From: Chiloscyllium plagiosum
Lineage: Eukaryota
Reading direction: 5' to 3'
Assembly (NCBI RefSeq): GCF_004010195.1
Contig: NC_057719.1
Coordinates: 23,732,313-23,796,312, forward strand
Length of the DNA: 64,000 bases
The notes beneath the pieces are model-generated. The model worked only from the letters and a program-made list of their open reading frames with translations. It was not told the DNA's origin and did no database searches. Position numbers and translations under genes: made by a program. Every line of letters starts with the position of its first letter. Positions within the stretch are counted from its first letter, which is position 1. Positions 3,139 through 50,781 of the stretch are shown here, one piece after another.

Positions 3139-5132
3139 CTTTTTATTCAATGAATATACCTGGTTTTATCTAAAAGGCTCTAATGCATTTAAATAGTGAG
3201 TGATTGCTTGTATGATGAATCACAAGTTAAAATTCTTAATCAACCTTTCTACGTGTTCAATTTATTAATTCAGTAACTTGAATGCATGAAGTATGAGGAT
3301 GCTTTTATTCATCAGAGCACATTATTCGGAATCTCAGCACTGCATTACATGACCTGAAACCTGAATTCCATTTGACTATAACTGCAATGGTAATTATATG
3401 ACTTGCTGTCTTCATCACCAAACCCATGTCCCCCTCAACAGCTTACACCTCTCGCCCCCAATCTTAATTTAGGACCAAAACTGGTGCTGGTACTGGTATA
3501 ATTGCTTCAAAAATTGCAAGTCTTGTTGAAAAGGCTCTTCCAGTCAATGAGTTCAGAATTCTCAGTTCTGCCACAAGTTTGAATCTAAAGCATCACTTTT
3601 TGGGGGTTAGGAATTCTGCTTTGCAATAGTATCATAAAAACAGTTAAAACACTTATCCATTACTTAGCAGAGGTGGCAACCAATTAAAAAGAAATAGCGT
3701 GCTTCTCTCAAAGCTATTCCAAACGAATGAAGCTAAAGCTTTTACATTGATATACAACATAATTTTCTAACCGAGACTACTTGGTCATACGAGTTAGTAA
3801 ATATCAAGGATTTGCAGATTAAAAAGATGAAACTCGAACTCAACACTTCCTTTCTTTATCAACACCCACTTCCAATTCAATGGCATAATATTGTTTCTAC
3901 TTGTACTTAATTAAATACAGTTTTCCTTTTGGAGACTGATAGCCTCAACAGAAGCATTTGATGTGTTCAAGCCTGACAATGTACTGCAGACTACAAGTTA
4001 TGCTAATGAGAATGCTTCACTACCAAGGCAGCTTTGTGCAATACAGTGTGATATGTGTCACCATGGTTTTAACACAGTGGCTACTGAGAAAACTTCAGTC
4101 CATAAAATCATTTAGAATTAGCTTTGACACTTCTTTTAAGCAAAAACTTTATCATTTTAATCATAGACTGAGGATTTCTGGATTGCTTTTCAGAGCTCCT
4201 TTGCAATCATTTTGTTGCAATGCTTAAGAAGTAGAATTTATGGCCTAAATTGGTTGAATCATTAGTTTTGTGTCAACAACAAATTCAATTTGCCAATTAG
4301 GAATAATACTTGTAAAATGAATCTTTGCATAACGCAAAAGGGAAAATAAGTAATATATGTACAGTTTTTCATGTCTCTTGTTTTTAGCAGGGTGTTAGGA
4401 ATGGGGCTGTCGAGTAAGATAATTTCTTCATTGAAAATAACTGAAGACACAAATATTCAAGGACAGGAATTTTGCTTCTCAGTATTAATTAAATTTACAT
4501 TTATATTTACACTGAAGGCCAGTAATCTCTGGAATGTAAAGCTGTTGTAGTAGTACTGGATACTTTGTCACTAAAATAAAAATGTATTTGTAGATCTTAG
4601 CCGAAAGCTGTTTAAAAAGGAAACTGACTATTCTGGAGATATCAGTTGTATTGCTTGGTGCTTTTCAATGATAGTTGAAATTATATACCAGCTAACACTT
4701 GGTCAACTAAAAACTGTATTATATGTTGAAAGAGAGATTCTGGAATATGCTGAACATCTCTCATGACTTGGTCTTTCAAAAGACCATCATTGATGAGGAG
4801 ATCCAATACTCTAGCAGCTGCCTGAATTCAACCTTCTATAAACTATGGCAGTATGCTTTTGACAGAAACACCTCCAACAGTCAACGACAGTCTAAGTGTA
4901 CAGAACAGCTAATGTCACCTTGCTTCGATATGACAGTGAAACTTAGTAACAGCTATACATAAGAGTGATAGAGAAATTCTCTCTGACTCTGTTCATGGAA
5001 GAATGCCAGTGTTCTTCTTAATGCTAGCTCCATGAGCAGTCAGGCAACACCCCAATAAAATCAGTTTCATTGCTCTGGTCACTGTGTCCCACTAGATCCT
5101 GCACTAATGATTAACATTCCAGGTGAAGATAT

Positions 5133-6229: not shown

Positions 6230-6905
6230 GGGCCTCTTGGCTCTAGACCTCATTACAAGCATAGTTCAAATGTGAGGGTAAGAATTGAGCTCAAAACGTG
6301 AGATGAGCGTAACTGCCCTTGAAATTAAGGCAGCATTTGACTAAACGTGGCATCAAACAGCCCCCAACAATATCACTACCGATTGAAAAGATGTGGAAAA
6401 CTCTCCATGGGTTGGAGTTGTACTGGAAAATGACAGTGGTTATAGGAGGTCAATCATCTTGATCCAGGATAGATATGAAAGAGCTCCTCAGGCCAGTGTC
6501 CTAGGCCCAACCTCCTCAACTGCCTCATCAAAATCTTTCACTCCATTGTTATAATCTCCATTGGGGATTATAATTTTTCAGAAGATAATTGAATTTCCTG
6601 ACTGACTGGAAGAATCACACAAGAAGATTTAAACAGTGGGGTGCATCTTCTGACTTTTCCACCATGGTAACCTAAAGGCAAGGGCACACTGATCAAATGA
6701 AGTGCATGACCTTTCTTTTCCACCAAGGCTTGCTCATAGACCAATTGAAGCCCTTAAGTGGCCAATTAGTGTGAGTGCATCAACATGAGATGGAGTGCAG
6801 TGGTTCAAGTAGTTGCTTCACCACCACCTTCTCAAGGGCAATTAAAATGGGTTACAAATGTTAGCTTCTGAGAGGTTCTCACATCACAAAAAAGAATTTT
6901 TAAAA
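6230..6905 (+). mobile_element. Old CR1/L2-type LINE fragments (RT piece about 6230-6540, 3' tail about 6795-6905)
   Basis: aaggcagcatttgac..gtggcatc and cctcaggccagtgtcctaggccc ([12 protein letters not shown]); tail caccaccaccttctcaagggcaatt matches the LINE at 18655-19770. Confidence 0.65.
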
Positions 6906-7300
6906 AGCAATAAAATCCCTTTCAATTGGCTGAATCATTTTTTTCTCAGTCTAGACTGCTTTAACTGTTATTTTTAATGGAATATGTGGTATTATCCTTA
7001 CCAATGAATGCTGAGAGGAAATGTGTTCTGAATTTCAGAACGAAGCTGACAGCTCATTTTTATCAAATGCCTCCAGTAATAACATTTACATTGCTGCTCT
7101 CCAAATTCACATAGTACTCTGAAATCTCTGTTACTATAACTGTTTTTTTCCCTTAAAAGGTCAAGTTGATGTGGCTGTCCTCTGGTTGTTTTGCTCCCAG
7201 GTTAACCAGGTCTATGAGCAAGCCTTGGTGGAAAAGAAAGGTCATGCACTTCATTTGATCAGTGTGCCCTTGCCTTTAGGTTACCATGGTGGAAAAGTCT

Positions 7301-10935: not shown

Positions 10936-11125
10936 ATAAATACAGAAAGTGCTGGAGAAATGCATCAGCACTGAAGCACTCTGAATTTTATTCATTTGGA
11001 AGAACAGTAATACGAGACTGAAAATGTTAACCCTGTTTCTCTCTCCACAGATGCTGCCAGAGCTGTTGGGTTCTCCAGCATTTTCTGTCTTTTCTGATTT
11101 CTAGCATCTGCAATATCTTGCTTTT
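10936..11125 (+). mobile_element. Old PLE terminal-repeat fold-back remnant
   Basis: acagaaagtgctggagaa ... ttctccagcattttctgt inverted arms; ends ctagcatctgca like the other pLTRs; decayed hammerhead-like ggaaga...gaaaatgtt. Confidence 0.6.
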
Positions 11126-12581: not shown

Positions 12582-15500
12582 AGTCATAAAGTCATAGAGA
12601 TATCCAGCATGGAAACAGACCCATCGGTAAAAACAATGACTGCAGATGCTGGAAACCAGATTCTGGATTAGTGGTGCTGGAAAAGCACGAAAAGCACAGC
12701 AGTTCAGGCAGTATCCGAGGAGCAGGAAAATCGACGTTTTGGACAAAAGCCCTTCATCAGGAGTTCCTCGGATGCTACTTGAACTGCTGTGCTTTTCCAG
12801 CACCACTAATCCAGAAACAGACCCTTCGGTCCAATCCATCCTTGTGGACCAGATATCCCATCCCATTCTACACCCACCTGCCAGCACATGGCCCATATCC
12901 CTCCAAACCCTTCCTATTCATATACCCATCCAGATGCCTTTTACATGTTGCAATTGTACCAGCCTCCACCACTTCCTCTGGCAGCTCATTCCATACACGT
13001 ACCACCCTCTGCGTGAAAATGTTGTCCCTTAGGCCTCTTTTATATCTTTCCCCTCTCACCCTCTAGTTCTGGACTCCCCATCCCAGGGAAAAGACTTTGC
13101 CTATTTATCCTATCCATGCCCCTCATAATTTTGTAAACCTCTATAAGGTCACCCCTCAGCCTCCAACACTTCAGGGAAAAATGCCCCAGCCTGTTCAGCC
13201 TCTCCCTATAACTCAAATCCTCCAACCCTGGCAACATCCTTGTAAATCTTTTCTGAACCCTTTCAAGTTTCACAACATCTTTCCGATAAGAAGGAGACCA
13301 GAATTGCACGCAATTTTCCAACAGTGGCCTAACCAATGTCCTGTACAGCCGCAACATGACCTCCCAACTCCTGTACTCAATACTCTGACCAATAAACGAA
13401 AGCATACCAAATGCCTTCTTCACTCTCCTATCTACCTGCGACTCCAGTTTCAAGGAGCTATGAACCTGCACTCCAAGGTCTCTTTGTTCAGCAACACTCC
13501 CTAGGACCTTACCATTAAGTGTATAAGTCCAGCTAAGATTTGCTTTCCCAAAATGCAGCACCTCGCATTTATCTGAATTAAACTCCATCTGCTACTTCTC
13601 AGCCCATTGGCCCATCTGGTCAAGATCCTGTTGAAATCTAACATAACCTTCTTCACCGTCCACGACACCTCCAATTTTGGTGTCATCTGCAAATTTACTA
13701 ACTGTACCTCTTATTCTCGCATCCAAATCATTTATGTAAATGGCGAAATGTACAGGACCCAGCACCGATCCTTGTGGCACTCCATTGGTCACAGGCCTCC
13801 AGTCTGAAAAACAACCCTCCACCAACACCCTCTGTCTTCTACCTTTGAGCCAGTTCTGTGTCCAAATGGCTAGTTCTCTGTGTATTCCATGAGATCTAAC
13901 CTTGCTAACCAGTCTCTCATGGGGAACCTTGTTGAACGCCTTACTGAAGGCCATATAGATCACATCAACCACGCTGCCCTCATCAATCCTCATTGTTATT
14001 TCTTCAAAAAACTCAATCAAGTTTGTGAGATATGATTTCCCACACACAAAGCCATGTTGACTATCCCTAATCAGTCCTTGCCTTTCCAAATAATGTACAT
14101 CCTGTCCCTCAGGATTCCCTCCAACAACTTGCCCACCACCAATGTCAGGCTCACTGGTCTATAGTTCTCTGGCTTGTCCTTACTACCTTTCTTAAACTGT
14201 GGCACCACATTAGCCAACTTCCAGTCTTCTGGCACCTTACCTGTGGCTATCAATGATACAAATATCTTAGCAAGAGGCCCAGCAATCATTTCTCTAGCTT
14301 CCCACAGAGTTCTAGGGTACACCTGATCAGGTCTTGGGATTTATCCACCTTTATGCGTTTCAAGACTTCCAGCACTTTCTCCTCTGTAATCTGGACATTT
14401 TTCAAGGTGTCACCATGTATTTCTCGACAGTCTATATCTTCCCTATCCTTTTCCACAGTAAATGCTGATGCAAAATACTCATTTAGTATCTCCCCCATTT
14501 TCTGTGGCTCCACACAAAGGCCGCCTTGCTGATCTTTGAGGGGCTGTATTCTCTCCCTTGTTACCCTTTTGTCCTTAATGTATTTGTAAAAACCTTTTCG
14601 ATTCTTCTTAATTCAATTTGCCAAAGCTATCTCATGTCCCCTTTTTGCCCTCCTGATTTCCCTCTTAAGTATACTCCTACTGCCTTTACACTCTTCTAAG
14701 AATTCACTTGATCTATCCTGTCTATACCTGACATATGCTTCCTTCTTTTTCTTAAGCAAACCTTCAATTTCTTTAGTTATCCAGCATTCCCTGTACCTAC
14801 CTGCCTTCCCTTTCATCCTAACAGGAATATACTTCCTCTGGATTCTCGTTATCGCATTTCTGAAGGCTTCCCATTTTCCAACCATCTCTTTACCTGTGAC
14901 CATCTGCCCCCAATCAGCTTTTGAAAGTTCTTGCCTAATACCATCAAAATTAGCCTTTCTCCAATTTAGAACTTCAACTTTTAGATATGGTCTATCCTCT
15001 TCCATCACTATTTTAAATCTAATAGAATTATGGCCGCTGGCCCCAAAGTGCTCCCCCACCTCAGTCACCTGCCCTGCCTTATTTCCCAAGAGTAGGTCAA
15101 GTTTTACACCTTCTCGAGCAGGTACATCCACATACTGAATCAAAATATTGTCTTGTACACACTTAACAAATTCCTCTCCATCTAAACCCTTAACACTATG
15201 GCAGTCCCAGTCTATGTTTGGAAAATTAAAATCCCCGACCATAACCACCTTATTATTTTTACAGATAGCTGAGATCACCTTACAAGTTTGTTTCTCAACT
15301 TCCCTCTTACTGCTATAGGGTGTATAATACAATCTCAATAAGGTGATCATCCCTTTCTTATTTCTCAGTTACACCCAAATATCTTCCCTGGATGTATTTC
15401 TGGGAATATCCTCCCTCAGCACAGCTATAATGCTATCCCTTATCAAAAATGCCACTCCCCCTCCTCTCTTTCCTCCCTTTCTCTCCTTCCTGTAGCATGT

Positions 15501-15912: not shown

Positions 15913-16515
15913 CAAGGTATCCCACATGTTGTTAATGGAGCAGACCATCATAGACACCTTGAGATTGTTGTTATAAATTTTCTTAGGCTTCCTTATGAAT
16001 GAGCTTCCTGGCCTACCTCTGGATAGAGCATTTGTTTGGGCATAATTGAGTGAGGCATTCAAACAACATGGCCAGTTTATCTCAGCTAATATGAGCATAT
16101 TGTGGCCTCTAGACCTGACGTTGTATTTTGGGGGATACTCATGTTTGTTTTTATGTCTTTCCAGAAGATTCACAAATTTCTTGCAATGCTTTTCTTGGAC
16201 AATAATGTATTAAAGCTATGTTGATGCTGTAACACCATTGAAAACCCATAGAGAGAACCACAGCCGATGGACTTTGAGGACAGTGTCAGGTTTGATATCA
16301 TTATTCCTGAAACTTTGATAATGCTATTTACCTTAGCCTGAGTTAGCACATTGGATTCACAGGTCGATATCATGGAAGTTATCTATAACAAAATATTATT
16401 ACAGAACAGTTCTGCACAAGATCTGTTCATAACAATAAGTTTGTGTAGTGAGATTGATCTTAGTTGTAAGTATTTTGTTGCATTACATATGTAATTAATT
16501 AATAAGCATTGATGC

Positions 16516-16731
16516 GTGTGGTGCAGGAAAAGCACAGCAAATCAGGCAGCATCCGAGGAGCAGGAGAATCGCATTTCAGGCATAAGCTCTTTTTCAGGAA
16601 TGAAGCTTGTGGGCCGGAGGGGCCCATAATGTCGATTCTCCTGCTCCTCGAATGCTGCCTGTCCTCCTGTGCTTTTCCAGCACCACACTCTCGACTCTGA
16701 TCACCAGCATCTGCAATCCTCACTTTCTCTT
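16516..16731 (+). mobile_element. PLE pLTR fold-back mini-insertion
   Basis: 11-bp TSD agcattgatgc at 16505-16515 and 16732-16742; inverted arms gtggtgcaggaaaagcacag / ctgtgcttttccagcaccac. Confidence 0.87.
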
Positions 16732-16850: not shown

Positions 16851-17055
16851 AGGTAAAAACAAGGACTGCAGATGCTGGAAACCAGAGTCTAGATTAGAGT
16901 GGTGCTGGAAAAGCACAGCAGGTCAGGCAGCATCCGAGGAGCAGGAAAATCGACGTTTCGAGCAAAAGCCTTTCATCTGGAATAGAAACATCGATTTTCC
17001 TGCTCCTCGGATGCTGCCTGATCTGCTGTGCTTTTCCAGCACCACTCTAATCTAG
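16851..17055 (-). mobile_element. PLE pLTR fold-back mini-insertion with 72-bp near-perfect arms
   Basis: 13-bp TSD attgtgttcattc at 16838-16850 and 17056-17068; arms 16888-16959 and 16985-17056; hammerhead motif 16952-16979 on the minus strand. Confidence 0.9.
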
Positions 17056-21789: not shown

Positions 21790-23050
21790 ATCCTGGAATG
21801 TTAAGCTGCTGGTCCTGCCCTTCTCTAAATCCAGTTTCTGTAATGGCTAGAACATCGTAATTCCACGTACTAGTCCAGGCTCCAAGCCCGGTAAAAACAA
21901 TGACTGCAGATGCTGGAAACCAGATTCTGGATCAGTGGTGCTGGAAGAACACAGCAATTCAGGCAGCATCCGAAAAGCTTCGAAATCGACGTTTCGGGTC
22001 CTGATGAAAGGCTCCAAGCCCACCTACCTTACTGTCATACTCTTTGCAATGAAATAAGTAAACTGCAGACTTCATTAACCTTACTCTGTCTATTCTTCCT
22101 ATTAGACTCACATGATTTAACCTTTACCTTCTCCTCAATCACCCAACATGCTGACCTACTGCTCTGCTTCCCATCCCTGTCACATGGGTTTAGACCTTCC
22201 TGAGCAGCACAGGCAAACCTCCATGCAAGGATATGGGTGCTCCTTCACTTTAAGTGCAACCCATCCTCTTGTACAGGTCTCCCCTGTCCTGAAGAGATCC
22301 CAATGATCCCTTATCTGAAGCCCTCCCTCCCATCCTGCTGTTTATCTACATTTGCAACTGCATTATCTTCCTATTTCTGCCCTCAATGCACGTGGAACAG
22401 AGAATAATCCCCAGATTACATGCTGAAAGGTCTTGCTTTTCAACTTTCTACCTAACTTCTAAATTTCCTTTGCAGGACCTCATCTCTCTTCCTGTCTATG
22501 TCATTAGTAAGAATATTGGGTCACAATCTCTGGCTACTCACTTTCCCCTTTCAGAATGTGCTGTTCCTGTTCATAGACATCCTTCAGCATGACAGAAGGA
22601 GGCAACACATCATCCCTGAGACACAGAAACACCCATCTCTACCTCTGAATATCGAGTCCTCCATCACTACTGCTCACATACACTTTGAACCTCTTCTGTA
22701 CAATAGAGTCAACAGTAGTGTCACTGATCTGCCTGCTGTTGTTGCTTTCCCCTCAGAAGTACGATTGTTTGAGAGGGAAATAGTTACAAGGGACTCTTGC
22801 ACGACCTGCCTTCCCTCTTGATGGTCACCCATCTATCTGGCTGAACCTTTGGTGTAACCACATCTGTGCAACTCCTAACTATAAAACTGTCTGCATCCTG
22901 TATGCTCCTCAGTGAATCCAGTTGCCATTCCAATGGATCTATGCAGTCTGAGAGGAGTTGCAGGTGGACAACCATCATGCAGACATGGCTGTCAGGGACA
23001 TTTGACTTCTTCGTGATCTCCATATCTCACAGGAGGACAATACTACTCCA
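21790..23050 (-). mobile_element. CR1 LINE ORF1 remnant (esterase-type) and start of ORF2
   Basis: HVCMMVVHLQLLSDCIDPLEWQLDSLRSIQDADSFIVRS..DVVTPKVQ..RWVT parallels ORF1 at 27590-27800. Confidence 0.7.
21890..22008 (-). mobile_element. PLE pLTR mini-insertion
   Basis: 13-bp TSD aggctccaagccc at 21877-21889 and 22009-22021; same terminus ggtaaaaacaatgactgcagatgctgg as the 12629 copy. Confidence 0.88.
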
Positions 23051-24345
23051 CTAATTGCCATTACTATCCCTCCAGTACTTACTGGATTAAAAAAGGAGGA
23101 AAGACCTTATCTTGCCGTAACTTAATGTCACTCATCCGACTCAGCACAGCCGAATGCTCACCCACCCTCTGTTTCTAATACTTCTCATCATAACTATTCA
23201 TCAATATCTCCCAAGCTCAGCTAATAGGTGTAAACATAAATCATGGAGATTCAGCTGATGAATATGCTGTTGATAGGAGTCTGTGCATCATTTCAAATCG
23301 AGACCTACCAGATGGTAATCTCAGATCTGTCAGCACATCCATAATATTATTGTTGAGAACTAATGTGCAGTTATTTTACTGAACACATCTGCTTGCATGA
23401 CTATTGAAAGAGCTAAAATTCAGTTCTGACAATTTACATGTCACACAAGCAATATAAAACCAATCTAATATCTCCTTGGGAGTGCTAATTACATTTCCTT
23501 GTAACAAGCAACCCAAGCCAACATTTTAAGGAATGATTTATAGCTCATTCAGATGGTTTTACAAGGCCATTTTCAATTGTCAGTAGTTATGTTTTACACA
23601 ACAATTGATACCAGGCTCCATTGTCACCCTGCAGCAATTATTAACCTCTCCCATATGTGTCCATGTCATGCTAGTCACAGCTACTTACACATATATCTCA
23701 TTCCAATCCACTTTTGCGGGCAGGGTTTAACATTCGAAAATGACTTTGATTTTGTTTCATCCAGCAAATTTATATTATTCTTGAAACTCATTAAGTTTAT
23801 TTTTCTGTAACAAAATACTATATATGGCTGTATACTTCTAACTAATAAAGCAGTAAAAAATGTATTATATATTAAGTCAGGATAAACAATCCAGAAAGCC
23901 ATATAATACTGTTTGTCTTTATGTTTGTGACTACCCCTCTCTGCCAAATGTCTGTTGATGTCACTGTTTGATTTTTCTATAACAGTGCTTCTTATAATGC
24001 TGAGGTTTGTGAAGCTGGTAATAACATATTGAGAATCCTTCTTCAAAGTTTAATTTTAATAAAACAAATGACTAAAAAACATTTTCACAGTTGCAATGCA
24101 CACACATCATTATTCAAGTGAACAGGTATAAACAGTGTAAGCTATGTCTCAGTTCTAATGTGCTTGGGTTTGTATAGCATTCAAAACCTCAGCATCGGAA
24201 TATCACTTCTAATACTGCGAATTCAGTTAGAATGGCATGAGATGCTAAATAGTTCCAATGATTAGAGGTAGGAACGTGACTGCTACTAACTTATTGTGAT
24301 GACTTAGATTCAGAAACTTGACTGATGTGTTGTCCATTCCTAGGG

Positions 24346-25904
24346 AGGTGCTGGAAAAGCACAGCAGGTCAGGCAGCATCCGAGAAGCAGGAAAATCAAA
24401 GTTTTGGGCAGGAGTCCTTCATCAGCAATGAGGCTGAGAGCCTCCAGGGTGGAGAGATAAATGGGAGGGTGGTGGGGCTGGGGAGAAGGTAGCTAAGGTG
24501 CAATAGGTGAATGGGGGCAGGGATAAAGGTGATAGGCTGAAGAGGAGGGTGGAGCTGTTAGGTGGGAACGAAGATTGGCAGGTAGGACAGGTCATGAGGA
24601 TAGTGCTGAGCTGGAAGGTTGGAACTGGGATAAGGAAGGGGGAGGGTAAATGAGGAAACTGGTGAAGTCCACATTGATGCCCTGGGGTTGAAGTGTTCTG
24701 AGGCAGAAGATGAGATGTTCTTCCTCCAGACGCGGGTGGTGAGGGAGTGGCAGTGGAGGAGGCCCGGGACCTGCATGTCCTCAGCAGAGTGGGAGAGGAG
24801 TTGAAATGTTCGGCCATGGGTCGGTGGGGTTGAATGGTGCAGGTGTCCTGGAGATGTTCCCTAAAGCGCTCTGCGAGAAGGCGTCCAGTCTCCCCTATGT
24901 AAAAGTGACCGCATTGGGAGCAACAGATACAATAAATGACATTGGTGGATGTGCAGGTGGAACTTTGGTGGATGTGGAAGGCTCCTTTGGGGCCTTGGAT
25001 AGAGGTGAGGGAGGAGTTGTGGGTACAGGTTTTGCAATTCCTACGGTGGCAGGGGAAGGTGCCAGGACAGGAGAGTGGGTTGTTGGGGGGCGTGGACCTG
25101 GCCAGGTAGTCACGGAGGGAATGGGACCTGACCTGACCTGACCTTCCTCTGCCATTGCAGGAATTACAAAACCTATGCCCACACCTCCCCCCTCACCTCC
25201 ATCTAAGGCCCCAAAGGAGCCTTCCACATCCACCAAAGTTTTACCTGCACATCCACCAATGTCATTTGTTGTATCCGTTGCTCCCGATGCGCTCTCCTCT
25301 ACATTGGGGAGACTGGACGCCTTCTCGCAGAGGACTTTAGGGAACACCTCCAGGACACATGCACCAATCAACCCCATTGCCATGTAGCTGAACATTTCAA
25401 CTCACTTTCCCACTCTGCCAAGGACATGCAGGTCCTGGGCCTCCTCACTGCCATTCCCTCACCACCCAACGCCTGGAGGAAGAATACCTCATCTTCAGCC
25501 TTGAAACACTTTAACCCCAGGGCATCAATGTGGACTTCACCAGTGTCCTAACTTCCCCTCCCCCCACCTTACCCCAGTTCCAACCTGCCAGCTCAGCACC
25601 ATCCACATGACCTGTCCTACTTGCTAATCTTCCTTCCCACCTATCCACTCAACCCTCCTCTCCAACCTATCACCTTTACCCCCACCTCCATCCATGTATT
25701 GCTCTCTTAGCTACCTTCTCCTCAGCCCCACCCCCCTCCCATTTATCTCTCCACCCCAGAGGCTCCCAGTCTCATTCCTGATGGAGGGCTCCTGCCCGAA
25801 ACCTCGATTTTCCTGCTCCTCAGATGCTGCCTGACCTGCTGTGCTTTTCCAGCATCACTCTAATCTTGACTCTGATCTTCAGCATCTGCAGTCCTTACTT
25901 TCAC
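24346..25904. mobile_element. Penelope-like element as a 1.56-kb inverted duplication of GIY-YIG plus pLTR
   Basis: 12-bp TSD ccattcctaggg at 24334-24345 and 25905-25916; arms 24347-25060 and 25141-25856; NVICCIRCSRCALLYIGETGRLLAEDFREHL at about 25258-25350, mirrored on the minus strand. Confidence 0.93.
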
Positions 25905-26208
25905 CCATTCCTAGGGCGGGTTGAGCCAAGAGTGTCATTGTGTAATTCAAAAGCCATTAGGCAAAAATAATATTGAAAACAACAAAAGTTGAATCCTGTT
26001 TATTCACACACTGGAGCAGTTGCAAGTGCAAACCTCTGAGGATCACCTTGAAGCAGTTTGGGAAAAGGGTCCTCACAGCCAACATCACAATGATGAGGTC
26101 TGGGAAGGGCGTTGGTAAAGAACAAAGAGAGACATCACAGGAAAACAGGAGTGGTCTCACCTGACTGTAGAAGAACAGGTTGCAAGGGGAAGATCTGATT
26201 GGTAAGTA

Positions 26209-27336
26209 GAGGTAGCCCTTGGATAACATGCATCTTGGCAGCGCATTTTGCTTATAACATTGCTGAGGAATTAAGGAATGGTATTTTTGAGAACGCTTAC
26301 CTCTGCAATAGCGCAATTCCAGCAGTGGTCATTTTGCGCACTTCATTCTGCGTATGTTCCAATGTCCGTGCCGAAGACTCCATTCCAATCTGCGCATGTG
26401 CCAATGTCCATGCCGAAGACTCTGCGCCATTCTGTGTATGTGCCAATGTCCATGCCAAAGTCTCCATGTCATTCTGCGCATGTGCTGATGTCTGTACCGA
26501 AGACTGCGCCATTCTGTGCATGTGCCGATGTCAGTGCCAAAGTCTCAGTGCCATTCTACACATGTTCCAATGTCCGTGCCAAAGTCTCCATGCCATTCCA
26601 TGAATGTGCCGATGTCTGTGCCGAAGTCTCCACATCGTTCCATGAATGTGTTGATGTCCGTGCCGAAGTCTCCAAACTGTTCTATCCATGTGCCAAAGTC
26701 CATGCCGAAGTCTCCACGCCGTTCCGCACATATGCCAATGTCCGTGCTGAAGTATCCGCGCCATTCTGTGCATGTGTCAATGTCAACTGCTGACAGAACA
26801 GCTTTCTGCGAGAGGTACTGTAGAGAGAGCACTTTCTGAGAGAGATATGTTGAGCAGCTTCCTGTGAAAAGTGCACCACTCCTAGATTAAAGCAGATGGG
26901 CATAGTGGCAAGAATATTAACAAGACACATCCTGGAGATAAAATTGCTGGTGGTGAACACAAAAGAAAGGGTATAACAATGGAAGAGAAGCTCGATATTA
27001 TAAAGCATTTTGAACATAAGGAGAGAATATATGACATAGCTCCCTTAACAGGAATGAGGGAGTCTACCTTAAGCACCATTATAACCCTCTGTCCCTGCAT
27101 TAACAATATTTTTTAAATGTACTGTGTTAAATTTACTTTTATTTCATTGATAATATGATTCATACCTTCATTCAGGCTGTGCTATACTTTGTGTTAGACT
27201 TTTGGGAGATTTTTGAGCGCTTGTGCGGGATATTTTTTTCTGGTCTGCTCCTCACCCCACTTTTTGCATAGGCCTCATTGTTCCTATTGAGCAATTCTTT
27301 TTATTCAGCAAGGTTTCACTGGAATGCAACTGCCTG
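26209..27336 (+). mobile_element. Tigger/pogo-type DNA transposon, internally deleted
   Basis: CENP-B/psq-type HTH KRKGITMEEKLDIIKHFEHKERIYDIAPLTGMRESTLSTII at 26961-27083; decayed termini TA|gaggtag ... ctgcctg|TA. Confidence 0.75.
26355..26784. repeat. 42-bp minisatellite, 10 units plus a partial unit
   Basis: Consensus about tgtgccaatgtccgtgccgaagtctccacgccattctgcgca; one unit is 40 bp. Confidence 0.95.
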
Positions 27337-40620: not shown

Positions 40621-41409
40621 AGTCATTCCCAATGGTGACATCATCAGCACTTAATCCATTCGGTTTCAGCTGAATTCCAACTCAACCAGGAAGACCTTTC
40701 CCATTGCCGATATATCAATATCACTGAAGACAATGAACCTGACCATCTACAGCTTTATAAAATGTTCTCAACTCCTACCTAGCTAGTTTCACCACTATAA
40801 GACAATAAGAAACAGGAATGGGTGTAGGCTATTCGGCCTCTTGAGCCTGCTGTGCCATTCTATAGAATCATGGCTGATCCAATATTCCCCAGCCCCAACT
40901 TCCTCCATTATCCCATCACACTGATCAAGAATTTAACTAGCACAGTCTTCAATATACACAAGGATTCTGTGCCCATAGCTCTCTGTGGCAAGGAATACCA
41001 AAGATTCACAACCACTGAGAGAAGAAATTCCACCTCATCTCAGTCTTAAAGTGGTGCCCCTTTATTCTGAGACTATGCCCTCTGGTGTGAGACTCCCCCA
41101 TGAGGAGGTAACATCCTCTCAGCATTTACACTTTCAAGTCACTTAAGAATCCTATAAAATTCAATGAGATCATCTGTCACTCTTGTAAACTCCAGTGAGT
41201 AGAATCCCAACCTATATAGCCTTTGCTCAATACCTCCTAACAAGGAAGCATCTTGAAATTTCTCTGAACTGCCTCCAATAAAATAATATATTTTCTTAAA
41301 TAAGGGCACCAAAACTGCTCACAGTACTCCAGATGTGCTTTCAGCAGCACCTTGTACAGTCACAGTAAGACGTCCCTCCATTTATACTCCAACCCCTCTG
41401 AAATAAGAG

Positions 41410-41555
41410 GCTTGGCACACCAGCCTCATTCCTGAAGAAGGGCTTATGCCTGAAACGTCGATTCTCCTGCTCCTCTGATGCTGCCTAGCCTGCTGTGTTT
41501 TTCCAGCATCACATTTTTCAACTCTGGTCTCCAGTATCTGCAGTCCTCACTTTCT
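41410..41555 (+). mobile_element. PLE solo pLTR insertion
   Basis: 16-bp TSD ccctctgaaataagag at 41394-41409 and 41556-41571. Confidence 0.9.
41432..41459 (+). ncRNA. Minimal type I hammerhead ribozyme motif (PLE-associated)
   Basis: CUGAAGA-A-GGGC-UUAU-GCCU-GAAAC-GUC; both conserved core boxes and the GUC triplet are present; activity not shown. Confidence 0.75.
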
Positions 41556-42397
41556 CCCTCTGAAATAAGAGCCAACATTCCATTAGCCTTCCTGATTACC
41601 TTCCGCACCTGTGCGCTAGCTTTCTGGGTTTCATGCATAAGTTTCTCCAAGTCCCTTTGTGTTGCAGGTTTCTGCAGTTTTTTTTCCCCTTTAGTTCTCT
41701 TTTGATTCTCCTTTCCAAAATGAACAACTTCACATTTTCCCACATTATATTCCATTTGCCAACCTTTGCCCACTGTCGTCTGCCAATCTGGTGAAAGCAT
41801 ATTCACTTTATATATAGTAAACAGTTATGATCCCAGCACTGATACCCATGAAATCCCACTGGTCATAGATTGTCAACCCGAAAAAGAACATCTTATCCCC
41901 ACTTGCTGTTTCCTGCCCATCAACCAATTCTTTATCCATGCCAGTATACTACCTCCAACACCATGAATTCTTATTTTAAAACTCTAATCTTCTGGAAGTC
42001 CAAAGATAGTACTGGTTCTCCTCTATCCACTCTGGTTAAGGTTTCCTTGAAAAACTTAAATAAATTAGTCAACCATGATTTCTCTTTCATAAAGTCATGT
42101 TGACACAACTTGATTACATAATGATTTCCCAAATGTTCTCTACTATTATTTCCTTAATAATTGATTTCATTAATTTGCCAACAATAGATCTTAGGCTAAT
42201 TGTCCTATAGTGATACTTGTATGTCTCCCTTCTTTTTTGAATAGGTATGTCATATTCATAGTTTTCCAATCCACTGGAAAATACAAGGATTTTTGGAAAA
42301 TTACAACTAATGCATCCACTATCTCAATAGCCATTTCTTTAATATCCTAGTATGCAAACCATTGGAGCCAGGTGGCTTTTCTGCCTTTTGCCCAATT

Positions 42398-42745: not shown

Positions 42746-44835
42746 AAATTGTATGATGCTGCTTCTTTCGTACTTCATTCCTCCTCCATATTCTTTATGA
42801 TTAATGTTTGAAATATTTTCCAGCATAAAACATTTTTTCAGACAAATGTAAACTTTTTATTTGCATGATGATGATACAATTCATTGAATTTAGCCTGTGG
42901 TGTATGTTAGATCACATTAACTGTGAGATAGGAATCTGTCACAATGGCAAGTTATCACCTGCAGTAAGTGATCAAAAGGATAAGTTAAGATTAACGTTTG
43001 AACAAGCTACATCACAGTAACCCTCGACACCACTCTCACTCTGTGCAAACACACTTAACTGGGCTGTGTCACTCAATGCTGCACCACAAGGTACGGTGTA
43101 GCCACTAAACTGTCAGATGCATGTTTTACGACAAAGCTTCTCACTTCAGAGTAATCCGAGAAATGGAAATCAGTAGGTCTCAACCTTAGTGAGTTCCTCT
43201 CAAAAAGGATACACCTTTTTTCTCCCAACGCCTGCAGTAGCTTTTTAATTTATACTGCTCACAAGTGTCGTGAATATTGATTCATGTTGACTTCCAAAAC
43301 TGATTTTAACACACTTCAACAGATACTTATCACTGGCTTTTTCAATACTCTCTCAGCCTCAGCTCAGATGACTCTCTCTTTATCATTTGGATGGTACTTA
43401 CAGCCAGGTGCCTTTTATAGACTTACCTTTTTGTGTTTTTTTTTTAAATTTAGAAAGAAAATATGCATCCATTGAATTGATCTTTATGAACACATTTTTA
43501 AAGAATTTTTGTGTGTTATCATTGTGATTTACAATGCACTCAACCCATTTAATCAATGCAGCAATCTAAAAACAGGCCCCAGAAAGATGATTTACCAGCG
43601 CAGAATAAATCAATGCAGGAGACAAATATGTTTTGTAAACTATAACATGTAGAGTATATGGAGGGAATTTTTATGCCTAATATATTTATAAATACACACT
43701 GCTGACTTAGCGACTGATATTTATCAACTTGGGTACCGTCTCAAAAAGATTTCACTGAGTTGCTGAGACAGGCTATTTTTTCTAGGGGCCATATTGAAAT
43801 AAGCTCTATGGGTATACCTACACCACACAGGAGACTGCAGTAGTTAAGATGGAAGCTTATCATGTTCTGAATGGCAACAAGGGAGAAGCAAGAAATGCTG
43901 ACTTTGCTAGTGATTCTCACATCCCATGAATGAATATTTTAAAAATTCCAACCTACATTTCTGGATCAGTTTACATCAATGCTTACAACTGTCCAGCTAT
44001 TTTTATACCATCTCATTTCTAGTCTTGCAGTGCTGTGATTATCATCCCTGTCTCTGAGGCAGACTTCTGGGTTCGAGTGCCCTTTAGGACTTGATGTCCA
44101 TAAAAGGTACATTCCTGCCCAAAATCCACAAACCTGACTGCCCCGGCCGACCCATTGTCTCCGCCTGCTCCTGCCCCACCGAACTCATCTCCGCATACCT
44201 TGACACCGTCCTGTCCCCCTTAGTCCAAGAACTCCCCACCTACGTTCGGGACACCACCCATGCCCTCCACCTGCTCCATGATTTTCGCTTCCCCGGTCCC
44301 CAACGCCTTATTTTCACCATGGACATCCAGTCCCTGTACACCTCCATCCCCATCACGAAGGACTCAAAGCCCTCCACTTCTTTCTTTCCCGCCGTACCGA
44401 CCAATACCCTTCCACTGACACCCTCCTTCAACTGACTGAACTGGTCCTCACCCTGAACAACTTCTCTTTCCAATCCTCCCAATTCCTCCAAACGAAAGGA
44501 GTAGCCATGGGCACCCACATGGGCCCCAGCTATGCCTGCCTCTTCGTAGGATATGTGGAACAATCCATCTTCCGCAACGACACTGGCCCCACCCCCCACC
44601 TTTTCCTCCGCTACATCGATGACTGTATCGGCGCCGCCTCGTGCTACCACGAGGAGGTTGAACAGTTCATCCACTTCACCAAAACCTTCCACCCCGACCT
44701 CAAATTCACCTGGACAGCCTCAGATTCCTCCCTCCCCTTCCTCGACCTTTCTATTTCTATCTCAGGCGAACAAATCAACACGGACATCTACTACAAACCA
44801 ACCGACTCACACAGCTACCTGGACTGCACCTCCTC

Positions 44836-45587
44836 NNNNNNNNNNNNNNNNNNNNNNNNNNNNNNNNNNNNNNNNNNNNNNNNNNNNNNNNNNNNNNNNN
44901 NNNNNNNNNNNNNNNNNNNNNNNNNNNNNNNNNNNNNNNNNNNNNNNNNNNNNNNNNNNNNNNNNNNNNNNNNNNNNNNNNNNNNNNNNNNNNNNNNNNN
45001 NNNNNNNNNNNNNNNNNNNNNNNNNNNNNNNNNNNNNNNNNNNNNNNNNNNNNNNNNNNNNNNNNNNNNNNNNNNNNNNNNNNNNNNNNNNNNNNNNNNN
45101 NNNNNNNNNNNNNNNNNNNNNNNNNNNNNNNNNNNNNNNNNNNNNNNNNNNNNNNNNNNNNNNNNNNNNNNNNNNNNNNNNNNNNNNNNNNNNNNNNNNN
45201 NNNNNNNNNNNNNNNNNNNNNNNNNNNNNNNNNNNNNNNNNNNNNNNNNNNNNNNNNNNNNNNNNNNNNNNNNNNNNNNNNNNNNNNNNNNNNNNNNNNN
45301 NNNNNNNNNNNNNNNNNNNNNNNNNNNNNNNNNNNNNNNNNNNNNNNNNNNNNNNNNNNNNNNNNNNNNNNNNNNNNNNNNNNNNNNNNNNNNNNNNNNN
45401 NNNNNNNNNNNNNNNNNNNNNNNNNNNNNNNNNNNNNNNNNNNNNNNNNNNNNNNNNNNNNNNNNNNNNNNNNNNNNNNNNNNNNNNNNNNNNNNNNNNN
45501 NNNNNNNNNNNNNNNNNNNNNNNNNNNNNNNNNNNNNNNNNNNNNNNNNNNNNNNNNNNNNNNNNNNNNNNNNNNNNNNNNNNNNNN
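44836..45587. other. Assembly gap (752 N)
   Basis: Run of n. Confidence 1.
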
Positions 45588-45644
45588 GGAACAGGAGAAT
45601 CGACGTTTCGGGCATTAGCACTCGGGCATTAGTGTTCCTCATTC

Positions 45645-45672
45645 CTGAAGAAGGGCTAATGCCCGAAACATC
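45645..45672 (+). ncRNA. Minimal hammerhead ribozyme motif (PLE-associated)
   Basis: CUGAAGA-A-GGGC-UAAU-GCCC-GAAAC-AUC; the partial inverted copy at 45588-45619 retains GAAACGUC. Confidence 0.65.
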
Positions 45673-46054
45673 GATTCTCCTGTTCCCTAGATGCTGCCTG
45701 ACCTGCTGCGCTTTTCCAGCAACACATTTCCATCTCTGATCTCCAGCATCTGCAGACCTCACTTTCTCCACATTCACAATATGCACAATCAGGTGGATTG
45801 TCAATATATAAATCCTTTTGATACCAGTGGCAGGTGTTAAGAGCAGGAGACTCTCCTAGTCAGCTATTCTTCATGCAGAGTGTGTCACTCAAGGTATATA
45901 GGTTCTGTTGACTGGCCAGCAACCTGTTCTAAGTCAATCTAGCTATGGAAACAATCATACACAAGTGTTTTGTCAGCCTCATATGTTGTCAGATGTGAGA
46001 TCCCTCTAAATCTATTCCATGGACAATTTTGTGGACAACTACCATGCTAAAAAC

Positions 46055-46814: not shown

Positions 46815-48193
46815 TAAGACCATAAGACCATAAGACATAGGAGTGGAAGTAAGGCCATTCGGCCCATCGAGTCCACTCCGCCATTCAATCATGGCTGATG
46901 CGCATTTCAGCTCCACTTACCAGCGTTCTCCCCGTAGCCCTTAATTCCTCTAGACAACAAGAATCTATCAATCTCGGCCTTGAAGACATTTAGCGTCCCG
47001 GCTTCCACTGCACTCCGTGGCAATGAATTCCACAGGCCCACTCTCTGGCTGAAGAAATGTCTCCGCATTTCTGTTCTGAAATGACCCTCTCTAATTCTAA
47101 GGCTGTGTCCACGGGTCCTAGTCTCCTCGTTTAACTGAAACAATTTCCTAGCATCTACCTTTTCCAAGCCATGTATTATTTTGTACGTCTCTATTAAGTC
47201 TCCCCTTAATCTTCTAAACTCCAACGAATACAATCCCAGTATCCTCAGCCGTTCTTCATATGTTAGACCTGTCATTCCAGGGATCATCCGTGTGAATCTC
47301 CGCTGGACACGTTCCTGTGCCAGTATGTCCTTCCTGAGGTGTGGGGACCAAAACTGGACATAGTACTCCAAATGGGGCCTAACCAGCGCTTTATAAAGTC
47401 TTAGTAGTACATCTCTGCTTTTATATTCCAGCCCTCTTGAGATAAGAGACAACATTGCATTCGCTTTCTTAATCATGGACTCAACCTGCATGTTTACCTT
47501 TAGAGACTCCTCGACGTGCACTCCCAGATCCCTTTGTGCTTTGGCTTTATTAATTTTCTCACCATTTGGAAAGTAGTCTATGCTTTTATTCTTTTTGTCA
47601 AAGTGCAAGACCTCGCACTTGCTCACGTTAAATTCCATCAGCCATTTCCTGGACCACTCTCCCAACCTGTCTAGATCCTTCTGTAGCCTCCCCACTTCCT
47701 CAGTACTACCTGCCTGTCCACCTAACTTCGTATCATCGGCAAACTTCGCTAGAATGCCCCCGGTTCCCTCATCCAAATCATTAATATATAATGCGAACAG
47801 CTGTGGCCCCAGCACCGAACCCTGCGGGACACCGCTCGTCACCGGCTGCCATTCTGAAAAAGAACCTGTTATCCCAACTCTCTGCCTTCTGTTAGACAGC
47901 TAATCCTCAATCCATCCCAGCAGCTCATCTCGAACACCATGGGCCCTCACCTTGCTCAGCAGCCTCCCGTGTGGCACCTTATCAAAGGCCTTTTGAAAGT
48001 CTAGATAGACCACATCCACTGGGTTTCCCTTGTCTAACCTACTTGTTACCTCTTCAAAAAATTCCAACAGGTTTGTCAGGCATGACTTCCCTTTAGTAAA
48101 TCCATGTTGACTTGTTCTAATCAGACTCTGCTCTTCCAAGAATTTAGAAACCTCATCCTTAATGATGGATTCTAGAATTTTACCAACAACCGA
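46815..48193 (-). mobile_element. Young CR1 LINE, 5'-truncated, nearly intact RT
   Basis: 311-aa [24 protein letters not shown] plus an in-frame upstream ORF (QHGF, VYLDFQKAFDKVPH) separated by one stop; (cttatggt)n tail. Confidence 0.96.
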
Positions 48194-50343: not shown

Positions 50344-50423
50344 AAGGGCTTATGCCCAAAACATAGATTCTCCTGCTCCTCGGTTGCTATCTGACCTGCT
50401 GTGCTTTTCCAGCACCACACTCT
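50344..50423 (+). mobile_element. 80-bp PLE pLTR fragment starting within the hammerhead
   Basis: 14-bp TSD taacaaaa(g/t)tttcc at 50330-50343 and 50424-50437. Confidence 0.82.
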
Positions 50424-50781
50424 TAACAAAATTTTCCTACTTTTATATTCCATTTCCCTCGTAATATTTTCTTTCACCTGATGTACCTGCATACTTTTTT
50501 TTTTGTCATTCTCATGTACCAGGATAGCTAGATACACTTATACTACAAAATACTGCAATCTCTCCCCATTTAAATAACCTGCCGCTTTGTTATTCTTCCT
50601 GCTAGAACGGAAAATGTCACATTTTCACACATTATATCCCATTGTAGGCATCTTTTGTCCTATTCATAAATACTATCTTCATGTCATCAACAAATGTAGC
50701 TGCCACAAATAATCAGTCCTTTTATCAATGTCATTGATGTAAACTGTAAATAACTGAGGCTGTGGCACTGCAGTGGCTATA

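Follow-up and report, generated by a model that had tools for sequence, protein, structure and literature searches.

At positions 41428-41463, the window (the 64,000-nt stretch of the Chiloscyllium plagiosum genome analyzed here) contains the sequence of a minimal type I hammerhead. It lies in a solo terminal repeat (pLTR) of a Neptune-type Penelope-like element (PLE); this particular copy is in decay and is a passenger without detectable selection. In the source elements of the family, the hammerhead was probably kept by selection and probably cuts the element RNA after GUC in the germ line. We also favor, with somewhat less assurance, a broader reading: minimal PLE hammerheads would cut in the animal germ line and the genome would keep a DNA record of it in U6 fusions that arose independently and lie precisely at the scissile bond. 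One of these fusions would involve the 5' end of a full-length element RNA, and the cut ends would be substrates of RtcB. The motif alone is unsurprising, since minimal hammerheads (min-HHR) in the pLTRs of metazoan PLEs have been known since the work of Cervera and De la Pena in 2014 (PMC4209133).

The features of the family in the window are listed in Table 1. Both flanks of the 41432 copy match one continuous LINE copy (47343-47468). Retention of all 11 catalytic-core bases and of the ACGU palindrome might suggest that this copy is itself a functional, host-domesticated ribozyme. We consider this highly improbable: its downstream part is 12% diverged from the nearest subfamily consensus, the conserved 10.1-11.1 pair has suffered a CpG hit and is now G-U, the insertion lies within a LINE fragment, the nearest direct-repeat partner is at least 4.2 kb away, and, with about 55 intact cores per Mb in the genome, one intact copy is to be expected. 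The G-U pair, taken in the earlier note for a wobble, is ordinary CpG decay. The weakness of stem I described there is real: pair 1.3-2.3 is U-U in 12 of 13 rows of lineage A copies, and one subfamily closes it (AUUC/GAAU).

Table 1. Features of the PLE family in the window
Feature	Position	Strand	Remarks
Solo pLTR stub, 5'-truncated (hammerhead, conserved box, tail)	41410-41555	+	146 bp, within LINE fragment
Target-site duplication, left copy	41394-41409	+	16 bp, letters identical to 41556-41571
Target-site duplication, right copy	41556-41571	+	16 bp
Minimal type I hammerhead motif	41428-41463	+	All core bases kept; CpG decay at C11.1 (now U); ACGU palindrome; cut predicted between 41459 and 41460
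Stem I (41432 hammerhead)	41428-41431	+	
CUGAAGA (41432 hammerhead)	41432-41438	+	Extra A next
Stem II (41432 hammerhead)	41440-41451	+	
GAAA-CG-UC (41432 hammerhead)	41452-41459	+	Predicted cut 3' of 41459
Conserved downstream box	41477-41512	+	Common to lineages A-D; lineage alignment
Optional tail that separates the two favored 3' ends	41523-41555 (approximate bounds)	+	Copies end preferentially at +87..+90 or +123..+128, counted from C3
Inverted pair of PLE 3' ends	24341-25905	.	Each arm: zinc-finger linker, GIY-YIG endonuclease, pLTR, hammerhead (25778 +, 24425 -)
GIY-YIG endonuclease fragment	25207-25446	+	Hammerhead C3 332 nt downstream
PLE reverse-transcriptase fragment	44113-44836	+	Then assembly gap 44836-45587
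Young pLTR copy	45588-45769	+	C3 at 45645, G16.2>A; short inverted arm 45588-45622; near-identical copies genome-wide
Inverted stub pair	12629-12813	-	Hammerhead C3 at 12760, G12>A
Inverted stub pair, decayed	16514-16729	.	G8>A
Inverted stub pair	16855-17048	-	Hammerhead C3 at 16979, U4>A
Further pLTR stub without 5' half of hammerhead	21893-21999	-	Missing from the earlier list
pLTR stub starting inside hammerhead	50344-50427	+	G12>A
Older lineage-B-like pLTR remnant	11022-11114	+	

A pattern search of the window, allowing up to 3 mismatches, found 6 places that match the hammerhead pattern versus 0 expected (100 shuffles), and the remaining places named in the earlier note (about 16570-16597 and 50344) are genuine partial copies, which bears out the recurrence it had described. 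Its further reading, that the differences between the copies preserve the structure by falling at N7 and in loop II, does not apply to the window copies, as 6 of 8 have lost core bases and the full set of 11 is kept only at 41432 and 45645. The core changes are G12>A in copies 12760, 24425, and 50344 (the last of which lacks the 5' half of the hammerhead), U4>A in 16979, G8>A in 16597, and A9>G in 25778; further changes, C11.1>U, common to 41432 and 16597, and G16.2>A, in 45645, are at CpG sites. Two-sided changes affect none of the 8 pairs in lineage A (13 hand-picked copies). The lineage A subfamilies, which were clustered from downstream letters alone, show hammerhead differences at N7, at position 1.3, and in loop II. 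Copies 24425 and 25778 belong to a single inverted insertion, one on each arm, and the UCCU loop common to both therefore represents one event. This insertion (24341-25905) forms a near-perfect 1.5-kb inverted repeat, whose hairpin yields spurious Rfam microRNA matches. The window also contains a tandem array of a 42-nt repeat (26302-26797) and a perfect inverted repeat of 91 nt with a spacing of 466 nt (6652-6742 and 7209-7299).

The abundance of the motif was estimated from a random sample of one hundred 10-kb stretches, which were placed at round coordinates of large contigs and comprise 968,664 non-N bases (the assembly has 3.56 Gb); a profile found 196 pLTR pieces in it. A structure descriptor recognized 53 motifs in this sample (51 with C3-G8 and 2 with U3-A8), i.e., 55 per Mb (bootstrap, 40-70), compared with 0 and 0.5, respectively, in the shuffled sample, and extrapolation gives a genome total of roughly 1.4-2.5 x 10^5 motifs. 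The lineage of the 41432 copy accounts for 39 of the 53 motifs and two unrelated hammerhead families for much of the remainder. The min-HHR core CUGANGA/GAAA/UH with the C3-G8 pair is present in the family, an extra base precedes position 10.1 in 52 of the 53 random motifs, the 10.1-11.1 pair is G-C in 40 and G-U in 12 of them, and the palindrome positions 15.2-16.2 read CG in 34 and GC in 6, with CA and TG (10) being CpG decay products. Single copies decay at CpG sites within the hammerhead (G12>A in 15/95, C11.1>T in 14/94, and G16.2>A in 23/98), so the notion that individual copies spare the core has to be abandoned. In the 111 random copies that could be assigned, the core shows 27/734 non-CpG changes; the downstream figure, 520/7890, is inflated by unresolved subfamily differences. 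One of the unrelated families has stem II GGAGC/GCUCC, palindrome AGCU, and a CUA triplet (L068:421, L140:4148, L152:1863, and L171:1782), with a U3-A8 copy at locus L161; another has a stem II of 6-7 bp (L080:4925, L150:1148, L179:2107, and L031:7033), and its copy in L031 is found a few bases downstream of the cut site of a lineage A hammerhead.

The assignment of the motif to the terminal repeat of a Penelope-like family was confirmed: it lies in a pLTR beside an ORF with reverse transcriptase (RT) and GIY-YIG domains. The family displays the organization of endonuclease-containing (EN+) PLEs, namely, RT with a C-terminal GIY-YIG domain, direct pLTRs, and a tail plus an inverted 5'-truncated partner, which is found within 200 nt in 56 of 110 random copies. 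In the full-length copy L263, which was reached by walking upstream through genome copies and has one N gap inside, hammerhead C3 at 629 is followed by ATG at 793 (the long ORF starts 164 nt downstream of C3), RT, EN at 3429-3668, and a second hammerhead at 4012; among the loci fetched, it is the one copy with direct pLTRs flanking the ORF, its hammerheads being 3.4 kb apart. Locus L207 shows the N-terminus, RT, EN, and pLTR in this order without a gap. The RT motifs were identified by eye, and the endonuclease fragment of the window matches Pfam GIY-YIG with an E value of 3.4e-4, just below the curated cut-off. An intact element ORF was seen in none of the copies, of which the young ones carry assembly gaps, and the "long open frames" returned by genome searches are mostly N gaps. 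Ahead of the endonuclease, the minus frame at 24422-25192 contains a C-X4-C-XX-C linker. As the Neptune and Nematis clades are reported to have a CX2-5CxxC linker before the endonuclease (PMC8557442), this linker marks the element as one of the Neptune/Nematis type; it is called Neptune-type here, the linker being common to both clades. The 3' ends of pLTR copies are bimodal (+87..+90 and +123..+128 from C3), which delimits an optional tail.

Three older lineages (B, C, and D) carry the same downstream box as lineage A, and it is the comparison of these lineages that argues for selection on the source elements. Stem I reads AUUC/GAAU or AUUC/GAUU in A, AGUU/AACU in B, AGUC/GACU in C, and AGCU/AGCU in D, the length of stem II is 4 or 5 pairs, and lineage D has U3-A8 for C3-G8 in 16/16 fetched loci (the query's own included) and in 4/4 random-sample copies. 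In six chosen representative copies of lineages A-D, 5 of 9 pairs, including C3-G8 to U3-A8, are changed on both sides versus 0 in slid controls, and 96% of the cells are paired; these counts cover four lineages and hand-picked copies, with the B, C, and D loci fetched by a motif-containing query, and the shuffle control of the six-copy pair count is not a probability. The core is also more conserved than the flanking pLTR sequence, the opposite of the result that the earlier note named as refuting its reading: over six subfamily and lineage consensuses, gathered by expressions that include motif letters and hence biased towards conservation, 11/11 core positions are invariant versus 6/60 upstream and 25/62 downstream columns. 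When the lineage D consensus is added, the sole two core changes are those of the C3-G8 to U3-A8 swap. The downstream box is conserved as well, so that the core is not the sole constrained part. Thus, the earlier proposal of selection on the source elements stands on the between-lineage covariation and not on the window copies, and selection likely kept the motif in these elements. Endonuclease pieces are found upstream of 2 B loci and 4 C loci, as opposed to 0 of 16 lineage D loci. Lineage D (L091-L106) comprises short, nearly identical copies starting at stem I and is possibly a non-autonomous or mostly stub lineage.

The same data bear on the view that the motif is a vestige, once active and then passively carried, with its conservation reflecting few lineages and recent common descent. 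The decay of single-copy cores at CpG rates (see G12>A above) and the loss of one stem I pair to U-U in most lineage A subfamilies would fit such a history. However, the upstream pLTR has been nearly randomized between the very lineages in which five pairs change on both sides, and the U6 fusions described below belong to lineage A subfamilies with the U-U mismatch, which makes the vestige very unlikely in our judgment.

Fusions with U6 snRNA sequences place an RNA end at the predicted cut bond. The analysis covered 31 U6 loci, namely the 30 best Rfam matches plus two further stretches, one of them already in that set. Three of the 31 are fused to a pLTR, each time at the predicted bond, and another two to the endonuclease region. 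A genome-wide search with an exact U6-pLTR pattern, with the U6 3' end 0-30 nt from the box, returned six matches, all of which join five Ts to G1.1; the same pattern gave no matches at 31-60 nt from the box and none elsewhere in the 60-nt range. A seventh fusion at this bond (L275) has one U6 mismatch, and an extra match obtained with a relaxed U6 pattern (L310) was discarded as a chance hit, not U6. The seven loci differ in subfamily letters, in U6 length (24-105 nt), and in flanks; none has microhomology at the joint or the 5' half of the hammerhead upstream of it, and in three of them an inverted pLTR arm precedes the U6 piece. In L299 (G000:C1:38726739-38729780, minus strand), the U6 piece leads into the PLE at the cut bond, the element continues for 530 nt across 5' UTR/ORF, and a second PLE piece restarts at the cut bond, giving two scissile-bond joints in one insertion. 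The joints of L287 and L291 lie inside the endonuclease region, as in ordinary U6/L1 chimeras; other breaks in PLE RNA are therefore joined to U6 as well. Genome-wide patterns for lineages B, C, and D found no U6 fusions. A single abundant short repeat, which we take to be SINE-like, is attached by its 5' end to many U6 copies (L280, L281, L285, L290, and L293-L297), and in L276 U6 is followed by a tRNA-like sequence.

The 3' terminus of U6 RNA consists of five U and a cyclic phosphate, and RtcB is described as joining it solely to RNA with a 5'-OH (PMC6789731), the end that hammerhead cleavage leaves (PMC6155905). The U6-pLTR fusions therefore suggest, indirectly, ribozyme cleavage of source-element RNA in the germ line. 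Whether the ribozyme cut, a protein cut, or a template switch was responsible, the genomic joints indicate that RNA molecules ended at the ribozyme bond.

Ordinary copies show a different picture at their 5' ends, which lie at -9..+6 from C3 in 52 of 110 random copies, with 1 at +28; of the 85 ordinary copies whose 5' end falls in the range searched for fusion joints, 1 starts at the predicted cut. Ordinary 5' ends form no peak at the cut, and an apparent one at +32..+34 proved to be an artefact of a chimeric reference, for which 10/120 random and 5/131 other hits were dropped. In pLTR stubs, 5' ends accumulate where stem I begins (20/110 at -4/-3), many of them at inversion joints (random sample L051-L090 and L139-L198), and this place is a possible transcription start. 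Reads and contigs also break at -4. A G before the -4 start, which might be cap-derived, was counted in 7/16 versus 39/182 cases and, in a second count, in 5/19 and 5/27. RNA reads of run X21, a polyA single-cell library possibly from another species, used to the extent of 2% of the run, showed no pile-up of ends at the cut; they map to both strands and 94-97% continue into unlike sequence, which indicates copies inside host transcripts. The Rfam hammerhead models had no match at E<=5 in the window or at E<=10 in two short stretches. The 44-nt hammerhead region has no folding advantage over shuffled sequences (z 0.37). In monomer folding of six sequences (z -2.35 to 0.37), stem II forms, and stem I forms in the CUGU subfamily only; for four lineage A consensuses, a model without tertiary contacts places the dimer fold ~5-11 kcal/mol higher than the most stable dimer structure.

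In our preferred mechanism, which starts from an element RNA with one minimal hammerhead ahead of the ORF and another after it, cutting would be weak or conditional, depending on a dimer through the ACGU palindrome or on help from the element protein. Most integrated copies would derive from uncut RNA with a 5' end near the start of stem I, which fits the clustering of 5' ends near C3 and not at the cut; such molecules would be copied from the tail into stubs or long copies. A minority would be cut after GUC, likely as dimers via ACGU or protein-aided as in the anole, and the 5'-OH product could be joined by RtcB to a cyclic-phosphate RNA such as U6 or, alternatively, to its own 3' cut end, the latter giving a circle as Cervera proposed.

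A competing explanation is that the fold was selected as a protein-binding or transcription-start structure and that the 5' end at the GUC bond came from a protein nuclease or from a template switch of the reverse transcriptase. The position of ordinary 5' ends around C3, not at the cut, would be expected on these grounds, and published experiments lend it some weight: ribozyme mutants of the anole PLE are reported to insert normally, with no RNA-seq ends at the cut (PMC11167929), and the activity described in 2014 was low even in dimers (PMC4209133). Against it, the joint coincides with the exact hammerhead bond in 7 loci without microhomology, ordinary copies do not pause at this bond (1/85), and the change of C3-G8 to U3-A8 preserves a pair within the catalytic core. 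We therefore regard this explanation as unlikely, if less so than the vestige, and prefer cleavage by the hammerhead itself.

The published sequence features of min-HHR (PMC4209133) are, so far as the letters tell, all present in the family, the 41432 copy itself having G-U at 10.1-11.1. They include the consensus CUGANGAH-G..C-GAAAN-palindrome-NUH with an extra base between 9 and 10.1 and G10.1-C11.1, a short helix I, a predominance of solo copies, inverted pairs, hammerheads paired ~3 kb apart around an ORF, and the U3-A8 variant, reported there in Schistosoma; stem II is shorter here, at 4-5 bp. The same paper gives ~4,000 motifs for coelacanth and ~9,000 for Xenopus, compared with the roughly 1.4-2.5 x 10^5 estimated here, although the descriptors differ. 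Cartilaginous fish are absent from its text and from the examined part of its species alignment, and our literature search, confined largely to main texts, found no report of shark PLE hammerheads or U6-PLE fusions. Non-LTR retrozymes, reported to be present in the one chondrichthyan sampled, likewise have type I hammerheads tied to PLE pLTRs (bioRxiv 10.64898/2026.07.22.740005). They form tandem arrays, whereas the shark family is seen as solo stubs, inverted pairs, and ends of autonomous elements, and the 41410-41555 insertion consists of one unit flanked by target duplications, with no tandem head-to-tail hammerhead units.

The function of PLE hammerheads has been called unclear by Craig et al. 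(PMC8557442), and the genomic U6 fusions, by pointing to cutting in vivo, bear on this question. The family offers natural compensatory variants, with four stem I versions and the U3-A8 core, that can be used in cleavage assays; if our reading is correct, the proposed cut-and-circularize step of Penelope transposition becomes directly testable in a genome with some 10^5 motifs. A close counterpart is the anole Poseidon element PAc (Frangieh et al. 2024, PMC11167929), which shares the pLTR hammerhead and an optional tail of 30-40 nt between two 3' ends, and whose main template is described as uncut RNA, the same as proposed here. The anole hammerhead is reported to cut only with its protein. 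In contrast to PAc, where the long ORF starts inside stem II, the shark ORF starts 164 nt behind C3 and the linker is Neptune-type; also, the cut bond is marked by genomic fusions in the shark, whereas RNA-seq data reported for PAc had no ends at the cut. The fusions themselves resemble the U6/LINE-1 chimeric pseudogenes attributed to RtcB ligation (Moldovan et al. 2019, PMC6789731), in which the five-U end of U6 is joined to retroelement RNA and co-retrotransposed. However, the L1 joints are described as variable and as requiring an unknown nuclease, whereas the pLTR joints in the shark genome all fall on one ribozyme bond.
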